From a virus (Duplodnaviria > Heunggongvirae > Uroviricota > Caudoviricetes), in IMG/VR virus record IMGVR_UViG_3300010352_001127: a DNA stretch of 33,177 nt; one strand, 5' to 3'. A program made the translations under genes and the position numbers. Below, piece by piece: positions 3,250 through 3,324 of the stretch. The first letter of the stretch is position 1, and the number at the start of each line of letters is the position of its first letter. The notes under the pieces are model-generated. The model worked only from the letters and a program-made list of their open reading frames with translations, was not told the DNA's origin and did not search any database.

Positions 3250-3324
3250 TGACGAAGATGGGATTCGAACCCACATTGATCCATTACGATTCACTAGTTT
3301 AGGAAACTAGGTCGATACTTCGCC
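3250..3324 (-). tRNA. Non-canonical tRNA-Arg(CCU) with rewired D-arm
   Basis: GGCGAAG/CTTCGTC, 7-nt linker TATCGAC, CTAGT-TTCCTAA-ACTAG, TGAA-TCG-TAATGGA-TCAAT, GTGGG-TTCGAAT-CCCAT. Confidence 0.75.

Follow-up and report, generated by a model that had tools for sequence, protein, structure and literature searches.

A family of probable phage tRNA-Arg genes with a permuted core

How could a gene specify a working tRNA if there is no room for a D-arm between its acceptor stem and its anticodon arm? This question is raised by two genes in a stretch of tailed-phage DNA (Duplodnaviria; Heunggongvirae; Uroviricota; Caudoviricetes; IMG/VR record IMGVR_UViG_3300010352_001127), which has a length of 33,177 nucleotides (nt) and is referred to as the window in the following. 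One of them, gene 1, occupies positions 3250-3324 of the minus strand, and the other, gene 2, is cut off by the edge of the window at positions 1-45 of the same strand. On the basis of their sequences and those of their relatives, we consider it probable that both genes encode working elongator tRNA-Arg species. They are members of a large family that is almost confined to phages and has a permuted core: the segment that resembles the 5' strand of the D-stem and the D-loop follows the anticodon arm instead of preceding it.

Gene 1, a rewired tRNA-Arg(CCU) gene of 75 nt without an encoded CCA, is composed of familiar parts in an unfamiliar order (all of its coordinates refer to the minus strand). 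The 5' strand of its acceptor stem (GGCGAAG, RNA nt 1-7, 3318-3324) pairs at 7/7 positions with the 3' strand (CUUCGUC, 3251-3257), which is followed by the discriminator A (3250). The subsequent linker, UAU-CGA-C, comprises U8, A9 and U10 (3315-3317), the triplet CGA (nt 11-13, 3312-3314) and a single C, and with just 7 nt at this site, the gene lacks the D-arm hairpin that would normally separate nt 9 from the anticodon arm. The anticodon arm (CUAGU/UUCCUAA/ACUAG, nt 15-31, 3294-3310) has a stem of 5 base pairs (bp) and a 7-nt loop that includes U33, the anticodon CCU (3301-3303) and A37. It is followed by the 4-nt spacer UGAA (nt 32-35, 3290-3293), the triplet UCG (nt 36-38, 3287-3289) and the D-loop-like sequence UAAUGGA (nt 39-45, 3280-3286), which contains candidate equivalents of A14, A15, G18, G19 and A20 and matches the D-loop of the canonical tRNA-Arg genes in the window. 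A 5-nt connector equivalent to the variable loop (UCAAU, nt 46-50, 3275-3279) then leads into the T arm (GUGGG/UUCGAAU/CCCAU, nt 51-67, 3258-3274), so that the 7-bp acceptor stem, the 5-bp anticodon stem with its 7-nt loop and the 5-bp T stem with its consensus T-loop are all canonical. The triplets CGA and UCG are complementary and form what we call helix P, with nt 11-13 as a stand-in for the 3' strand and nt 36-38 as a stand-in for the 5' strand of the D-stem. Compared with the Rfam tRNA model (RF00005), gene 1 reaches 37.6 bits, which exceeds the cut-off of 29; the cmscan fit deletes the D-arm and accommodates a 16-nt insertion in the variable region. ARAGORN, when applied to the window, called neither gene 1 nor gene 2.

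Gene 2 is a rewired tRNA-Arg(UCU) gene, of which the window contains the first 45 nt, counted from its 5' end. Its acceptor strand GGCCCUG (39-45), the UAU (36-38) and the helix P triplet CGG (33-35), which together with one further base form the linker UAU-CGG-A, precede an anticodon arm with the sequence GCAGU/CUUCUAA/ACUGU (15-31, anticodon UCU at 22-24), followed by the spacer AACA (11-14), the second helix P triplet CCG (8-10) and the sequence UAACGGA (1-7), which ends at the window edge. In this truncated form, gene 2 is not called by the Rfam tRNA model. Its full-length version is found in a close relative of the window, the metagenome contig L093 (5448-5526, minus strand), whose gene order is collinear and whose sequence matches window positions 1-127 with 100% identity; there, the gene comprises 79 nt and has a normal T arm. 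The features from which the original prediction had started, namely the 7-nt linkers, the 4-nt spacers and the placement of UAAYGGA, are thus present at both loci, and the linker triplet is complementary to the triplet preceding UAAYGGA in each of them, in one case as CGA:UCG and in the other as CGG:CCG.

The same arrangement is widespread. An initial pattern consisting of the anticodon loop, UAAYGGA and the T-loop matched 18 IMG/VR contigs, 17 of which showed the layout of genes 1 and 2. With a pattern that leaves the anticodon free (UAAYGGA, 3 nt, AUG, 2 nt, GGUUCGAAUCC), matches were obtained in 37 IMG/VR contigs, in at least 119 metagenome contigs and in 3 contigs among 596 Gb of cellular genomes. 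One of these three cellular contigs carries the match next to an integrase gene and a tRNA-Phe gene, and the other two carry it in dense, phage-like tRNA arrays with PHROG hits; the family is almost exclusively phage-borne. Its members are defined by a 7-nt linker of the form UAN-NNN-N, an anticodon arm, a spacer, a triplet able to pair with linker nt 11-13, UAAYGGA and a connector ending in AU before the T arm, all of which are found in gene 1. R1, a covariance model derived from 23 members, assigns 88 bits to gene 1 and 40.1 bits to gene 2 over model positions 1-45. The 107 distinct members parsed from the matches to the anticodon-free pattern all have arginine anticodons (TCT in 65, TCG in 16, ACG in 14, CCT in 11 and CCG in 1), with spacers of 3-12 nt, mostly 4 or 5, and an encoded CCA in 38 cases. 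ARAGORN found 0 of these 107. The prediction that standard tRNA finders may overlook such genes was thus borne out for this program, although it does not extend to the Rfam tRNA model, whose call of gene 1 lies above threshold. Weaker matches to R1 were also detected in other phages, with the anticodons of Val(UAC), Ile(UAU) and Ile(GAU) (L015:10637-10713, L016:1057-1133 and L067:396-472, respectively); these look-alikes carry a D-loop strand of the UAAUUGGU or UAGUAGGU type. Because of them, the rewired design is mainly, and not exclusively, an arginine design.

Cultured phages contain members of the family as well. A BLAST search with gene 1 against cultured phages returned just a partial match, to Agrobacterium phage Atu_ph04. 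The 143-kb genome of this phage (MF403007) contains, at positions 112818-112893, a rewired tRNA-Arg(UCU) gene with an encoded CCA, which is its sole match to the Rfam tRNA model; the record is sparsely annotated (48 features), and the lack of an annotation at this site means little. A further rewired tRNA-Arg(UCU) gene, likewise unannotated and with an encoded CCA, lies at positions 25951-26029 of Felix O1 (NC_005282.1; L181:252-330), where helix P reads CUC:GAG and the spacer has 8 nt. The annotated start of an HNH endonuclease coding sequence (26003) overlaps the 3' part of this gene, so that this start may have been mis-called.

The key question is whether helix P exists, since the original prediction, that the D-stem 5' strand and the D-loop were moved to the 3' side of the anticodon arm, had been derived from a single compensatory difference between two genes and called for a covariation analysis of homologs. 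This analysis now supports it across the family. In an ungapped alignment of 23 members that share a fixed length, 23/23 form pairs 11:38 and 12:37, with three pair types each, and 10/23 form pair 13:36. Among 96 distinct hits to the R1 model, the two outer pairs are formed in all 92 comparable sequences and realized by all four Watson-Crick types, with CG 45, UA 23, AU 12 and GC 12 for 11:38 and GC 48, CG 31, AU 8 and UA 5 for 12:37. When the partners were slid by 1-3 columns as a control, the pairing of all 20 pairs of the structure dropped to 41-50%. The 96-hit alignment is fitted to the R1 model, and an independent check was provided by a mutual-information scan with average product correction, which covered all column pairs of two subsets, each of fixed length (n=56 and n=37), and was supplied with no structure. 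In both subsets, the helix P pairs rank among those of the acceptor, anticodon and T stems and are purely Watson-Crick. Moreover, the 107 members contain 20 different helix P triplet combinations, most of them fully Watson-Crick. Helix P is therefore real.

These data also bear on the explanation that the genes are decaying tRNA pseudogenes or assembly artefacts. Rejection by ARAGORN and an Rfam score below that of the neighbouring tRNA genes are what such an explanation would lead one to expect. However, gene 1, with one base changed, and the window's part of gene 2, without any change, recur in the independent metagenome contig L093. In addition, covariation within the family extends to the acceptor, anticodon and T stems, with all seven acceptor pairs covarying and paired in 98.8-98.9% of cases and the T stem paired in 100%. 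More than 100 distinct sequences from unrelated phages show the layout, which is far beyond chance, and the fact that these versions keep all their stems by means of compensatory changes refutes decay or misassembly, to which we attach next to no probability.

Several observations nevertheless weigh against the proposed fold. Helix P has just 3 bp, and its inner pair is formed in 66 of 93 sequences and mismatched in the remaining 27. Minimum free energy (MFE) folds of single sequences favour a weak local hairpin over helix P, and RNAalifold predicts neither of the two. The absence of helix P from thermodynamic folds is unsurprising for a long-range helix of 3 bp, and because such folding fails to predict it, the case for helix P is one of covariation. 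The full-length relative of gene 2 in L093 has a U-U mismatch in its acceptor stem and a 9-nt connector after the GGA. When the parts of the 107 members were put into canonical order in silico, ARAGORN called all 107, 106 of them as tRNA-Arg; it did likewise in a control in which the helix strand was reversed, so that this exercise says nothing about helix P pairing. Finally, as detailed below, variants of the Levitt pair divide evenly.

The local hairpin deserves closer consideration, as it would turn the genes into D-armless tRNAs with a long variable arm reminiscent of class II tRNAs, in which nt 36-38 pair with nt 42-44 and the linker stays unpaired. When gene 1 and the full-length relative of gene 2 are folded by MFE, a small hairpin of this kind is seen in both, and the sequence CCG-UAA-CGG of gene 2 is self-complementary. 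Across the 23 aligned members, however, pairing between nt 36-38 and nt 42-44 is found in 59% of cells and without a single double change, and the hairpin cannot form at all in the GCC/AGC and UGG/GCA subfamilies. We have thus rejected this stem-loop and regard the corresponding architecture as very improbable.

If helix P indeed replaces the D-stem, the question arises as to whether the strand that follows it still acts as a D-loop. U8 and A9 are invariant in 23/23 aligned members, even though no search pattern imposed them. A relaxed search, in which GUAU, the UCU loop, UAA and the T-loop were the only fixed elements, yielded 32 distinct members, of which 31 have the GG with an A directly after it and 32 have the AU before the T stem; the single exception has a D-loop that is one base longer. 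U33 and a purine at position 37 are present in the anticodon loops of the family. The arginine identity set of bacterial tRNAs comprises A20, C35 and U36 or G36 (reviewed in PMC9976931). C35 combined with U36 or G36 is found in both anticodons of the window, CCU and UCU, and in the arginine anticodons of 107/107 members, and a candidate equivalent of A20, as judged by its position in the sequence, is the A that directly follows the GG in 31/32 members. The conserved GG, the following A and U8/A9 fit a retained elbow contact and a retained A20 determinant for arginyl-tRNA synthetase (ArgRS). Conservation of this kind would be expected if the strand kept the U8-A14, G18/G19-T-loop and 15-48 contacts and presented A20 to ArgRS.

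The permutation can also be considered in geometric terms. The canonical tRNA fold contains the base triples 9-[12:23], 45-[10:25] and 46-[13:22]. The three new joins created by the permutation (9 to 23, 43/45 to 10 and 21 to 46-48) would link residues that touch each other in this fold, and because the joined residues already make contact through base triples, the permutation looks sterically cheap.

It is, on the other hand, conceivable that the RNA functions as a tRNA-Arg without being L-shaped. Helix P could extend the anticodon arm into a rod, with the 12-nt strand formed by UAAYGGA and the connector serving as a flexible tether, similar to the situation in the Y-shaped D-armless tRNAs of mitochondria; moreover, an engineered D-armless tRNA is usable in translation in Escherichia coli (PMC11551756). 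The 15-48 contact provides little guidance in this respect. When we compared A15:U48 with G15:C48, the counts in IMG/VR were 37 for UAA..AU, 1 each for UAG..AU and UAA..AC and 0 for UAG..AC, and the variants split into three concordant G/C cases, which in the covariance model alignment have other spacings, and three discordant ones, a result that a structure other than the L-shape would accommodate. However, a mere tether should be less constrained than a strand whose GG, following A and terminal AU are near-invariant even when they are not imposed, and the canonical T-loop UUCGAAU as well as U8 and A9 have been retained. We consequently regard a rod-like structure as unlikely.

An L-shaped fold with helix P suggests a straightforward model for the function of these genes. 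The equivalent of the D-stem 3' strand would lie directly after U8-A9, and the segment comprising the D-stem 5' strand and the D-loop would sit after the anticodon arm. Since both segments can still pair, they would form the 3-bp helix P around the anticodon arm, presumably stacking on the anticodon stem in a D-stem-like manner, and the secondary structure would be a three-way junction rather than a cloverleaf. The UAAYGGA strand could then dock onto the T-loop through its G18/G19 equivalents, thereby rebuilding the elbow and exposing the A20 equivalent to the ArgRS of the host. Since nothing has changed in the acceptor and T arms, the RNA would present a normal substrate to RNase P, the CCA-adding enzyme and EF-Tu. 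The transcripts would be processed, arginylated and used by the ribosome, where the CCU gene would read AGG and the UCU gene both AGA and AGG. Codon usage is in line with such a role: AGA (213) and AGG (19) make up 232 of the 271 arginine codons (86%) in 19 open reading frames (ORFs) of the window, and as part of the phage tRNA operon the rewired genes would supply decoders for the dominant arginine codons. In both the window and L093, every AGR decoder seen is a rewired gene, whereas the CGN decoders are canonical, as exemplified by tRNA-Arg(ACG) at 3433-3510 (minus strand; Rfam, 58 bits) and tRNA-Arg(UCG) at 4511-4583 (minus strand; Rfam, 55.5 bits). Both of these internal comparators are called by ARAGORN; the latter has UAACGGA in its D-loop, and its D-arm contains GUGUAACGGAAU, in agreement with the original prediction. 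The proposal that the rewired architecture is specific to AGR decoders thus holds within the window, whereas the family as a whole covers five arginine anticodons and has a few Ile and Val look-alikes.

The fold might also be correct and yet have no role in translation. In this case, the RNA could titrate, as a decoy or sponge, a host enzyme or a defence nuclease that targets arginine tRNAs, or it could act as a regulatory RNA. Its odd architecture would be compatible with such an activity, and a role in countering tRNA-targeting defences has been proposed for phage tRNAs (PMC10264068). Other features speak against this reading, however. For all five arginine anticodons seen in the family, the anticodon loop is intact, as are the acceptor stems, and a third of the members encode CCA. 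Furthermore, the genes reside in ordinary tRNA arrays, their anticodons match the dominant codons of the phage, and in Atu_ph04 the rewired gene is the only tRNA-like gene. We therefore give little credence to a purely non-translational role and favour working elongator tRNAs. Beyond the two genes themselves, we see about an even chance that the family constitutes a natural class of translation-active tRNAs with D-stem strands swapped around the anticodon arm and a rebuilt L-shape, which would represent the first non-cloverleaf elongators known to work with bacterial ribosomes and host ArgRS, and whose permutation may hide phage tRNA-Arg from host enzymes that read the D-arm, such as defence nucleases. 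Evasion of such enzymes would be an attractive, if speculative, reason for the rewiring.

The surroundings of genes 1 and 2 are typical of a phage. The window has a GC content of 31.6% and can be identified as phage DNA because it encodes tail-fibre and tail-spike proteins with collagen-like repeats as well as HNH endonucleases; no near match to it was found among the cultured phages compared. Its tRNA array lies on the minus strand and extends from about position 4583 to the window start, with 11 genes called by ARAGORN and 2 further ones, including that at 3250-3324, by the Rfam tRNA model at its gathering threshold. Several other elements of this region, all on the minus strand, are unusual. 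The tRNA gene at 2297-2368 is called by Rfam (47.3 bits) and missed by ARAGORN; it has the anticodon loop CCUCCAA, with C at position 33 and the anticodon UCC, and an atypical T-loop, UUUGAAAAU. A tRNA-like gene of 101 nt at 3144-3244, which is kept in L093, combines a well-formed T arm (loop UUCGAAU) with an acceptor stem paired at 6/7 positions, while its interior, with a T-arm-like hairpin and repeated CACCGAGU, is not readable as a D-arm plus an anticodon arm; it is called neither by ARAGORN nor by the Rfam tRNA model and scores 23.5 bits with the tRNA-Sec model. A second tRNA-like gene, of about 120 nt (3010-3135), has a 3-bp D-stem with the loop GAAUGGCA, a Leu-like T-loop (UUCAAGU), a perfect 7-bp hairpin resembling a long variable arm and a near-identical copy in L093; at the site of the anticodon arm it contains about 26 extra nt, in which no anticodon arm or anticodon can be assigned. 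Just upstream of the array, at 4860-4990, lies a short ORF that features a GC-rich hairpin together with a run of U. The tRNA genes are interspersed with ORFs at 198-1085, 1192-1722 and 3501-4433, whose products are DUF7487-like (below the cut-off), similar to Xre/MbcA/ParS-type antitoxins, with no toxin partner in sight, and similar to DUF559/Vsr endonucleases, respectively. Because they are missing from the otherwise collinear contig L093, these endonuclease and Xre-like ORFs look like mobile insertions in the tRNA array.

If our interpretation is correct, a conserved and widespread phage tRNA constitutes a counter-example to the cloverleaf rule and would reveal which features are truly needed by ArgRS, EF-Tu, RNase P and the ribosome. 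Because ARAGORN misses every member tested, counts of phage tRNAs and analyses of codon usage and tRNA supply would underestimate AGA/AGG decoders, including those of model phages such as Felix O1. The family may also offer a natural scaffold for the engineering of orthogonal tRNAs and an idea of how phages escape tRNA-targeting defences. According to a paper published in 2024 in Nucleic Acids Research, all known bacterial tRNAs are cloverleaves, and arm size is the sole structural variation among cytosolic tRNAs (PMC11551756). Our search of the literature available in full text, which did not extend to subscription-only papers, yielded no description of the rewired architecture, nor does any phage or permuted example appear in a review of non-canonical tRNAs from 2020.

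How do the rewired genes relate to systems that are already known? With canonical tRNA-Arg, as represented by the ACG and UCG genes of the window and by RF00005, they share the 7-bp acceptor stem, the 5-bp anticodon stem with a 7-nt loop, the 5-bp T stem with UUCGAAU, the D-loop motif AAYGGA with an A after the GG, an arginine anticodon and a similar length (75 nt). They differ in that the anticodon arm precedes the D-stem 5' strand and the D-loop and that the 3-bp analogue of the D-stem encloses this arm, giving a three-way junction instead of the four-way cloverleaf. Rearranged segments are also known from the permuted tRNA genes of Cyanidioschyzon merolae, in which the 3' half precedes the 5' half and a circular intermediate restores the normal cloverleaf. 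In the rewired genes, by contrast, the acceptor strands are located at both gene ends and, in gene 1, paired at 7/7 positions. No processing step is known that would bring the parts back into canonical order, so that the permutation would persist in the mature RNA. The 3' tRNA-like structures of plant viruses and the tRNA-like domain of tmRNA imitate the L-shape with a different connectivity. Like them, the rewired tRNAs would have no standard D-arm and would use a D-loop-like strand together with a T-loop to build an elbow; unlike the rewired genes, these structures are not decoding adaptors with an anticodon arm. D-armless tRNAs, such as metazoan mitochondrial tRNA-Ser(AGY) (PMC7609411) and the engineered mini HisT (PMC11551756), similarly have a short connector at the site of the D-arm and defeat standard finders. 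However, they are shorter and have lost the parts of the D-arm together with the elbow contact, whereas the rewired genes keep all parts, including the GG and a canonical T-loop, and the loss of D-loop and T-loop elements that characterizes the D-armless type is not seen, given that both the GG motif and the T-loop are conserved. In addition, the rewired family would work with bacterial hosts, unlike the D-armless tRNAs of organelles. Allo-tRNAs, finally, are likewise non-standard, were mined from metagenomes and in some cases occur in phages; with their 8/4 or 9/3 acceptor/T stems, they are cloverleaves with changed stem lengths (PMC5389517), whereas the rewired tRNAs combine standard stem lengths with a different topology.
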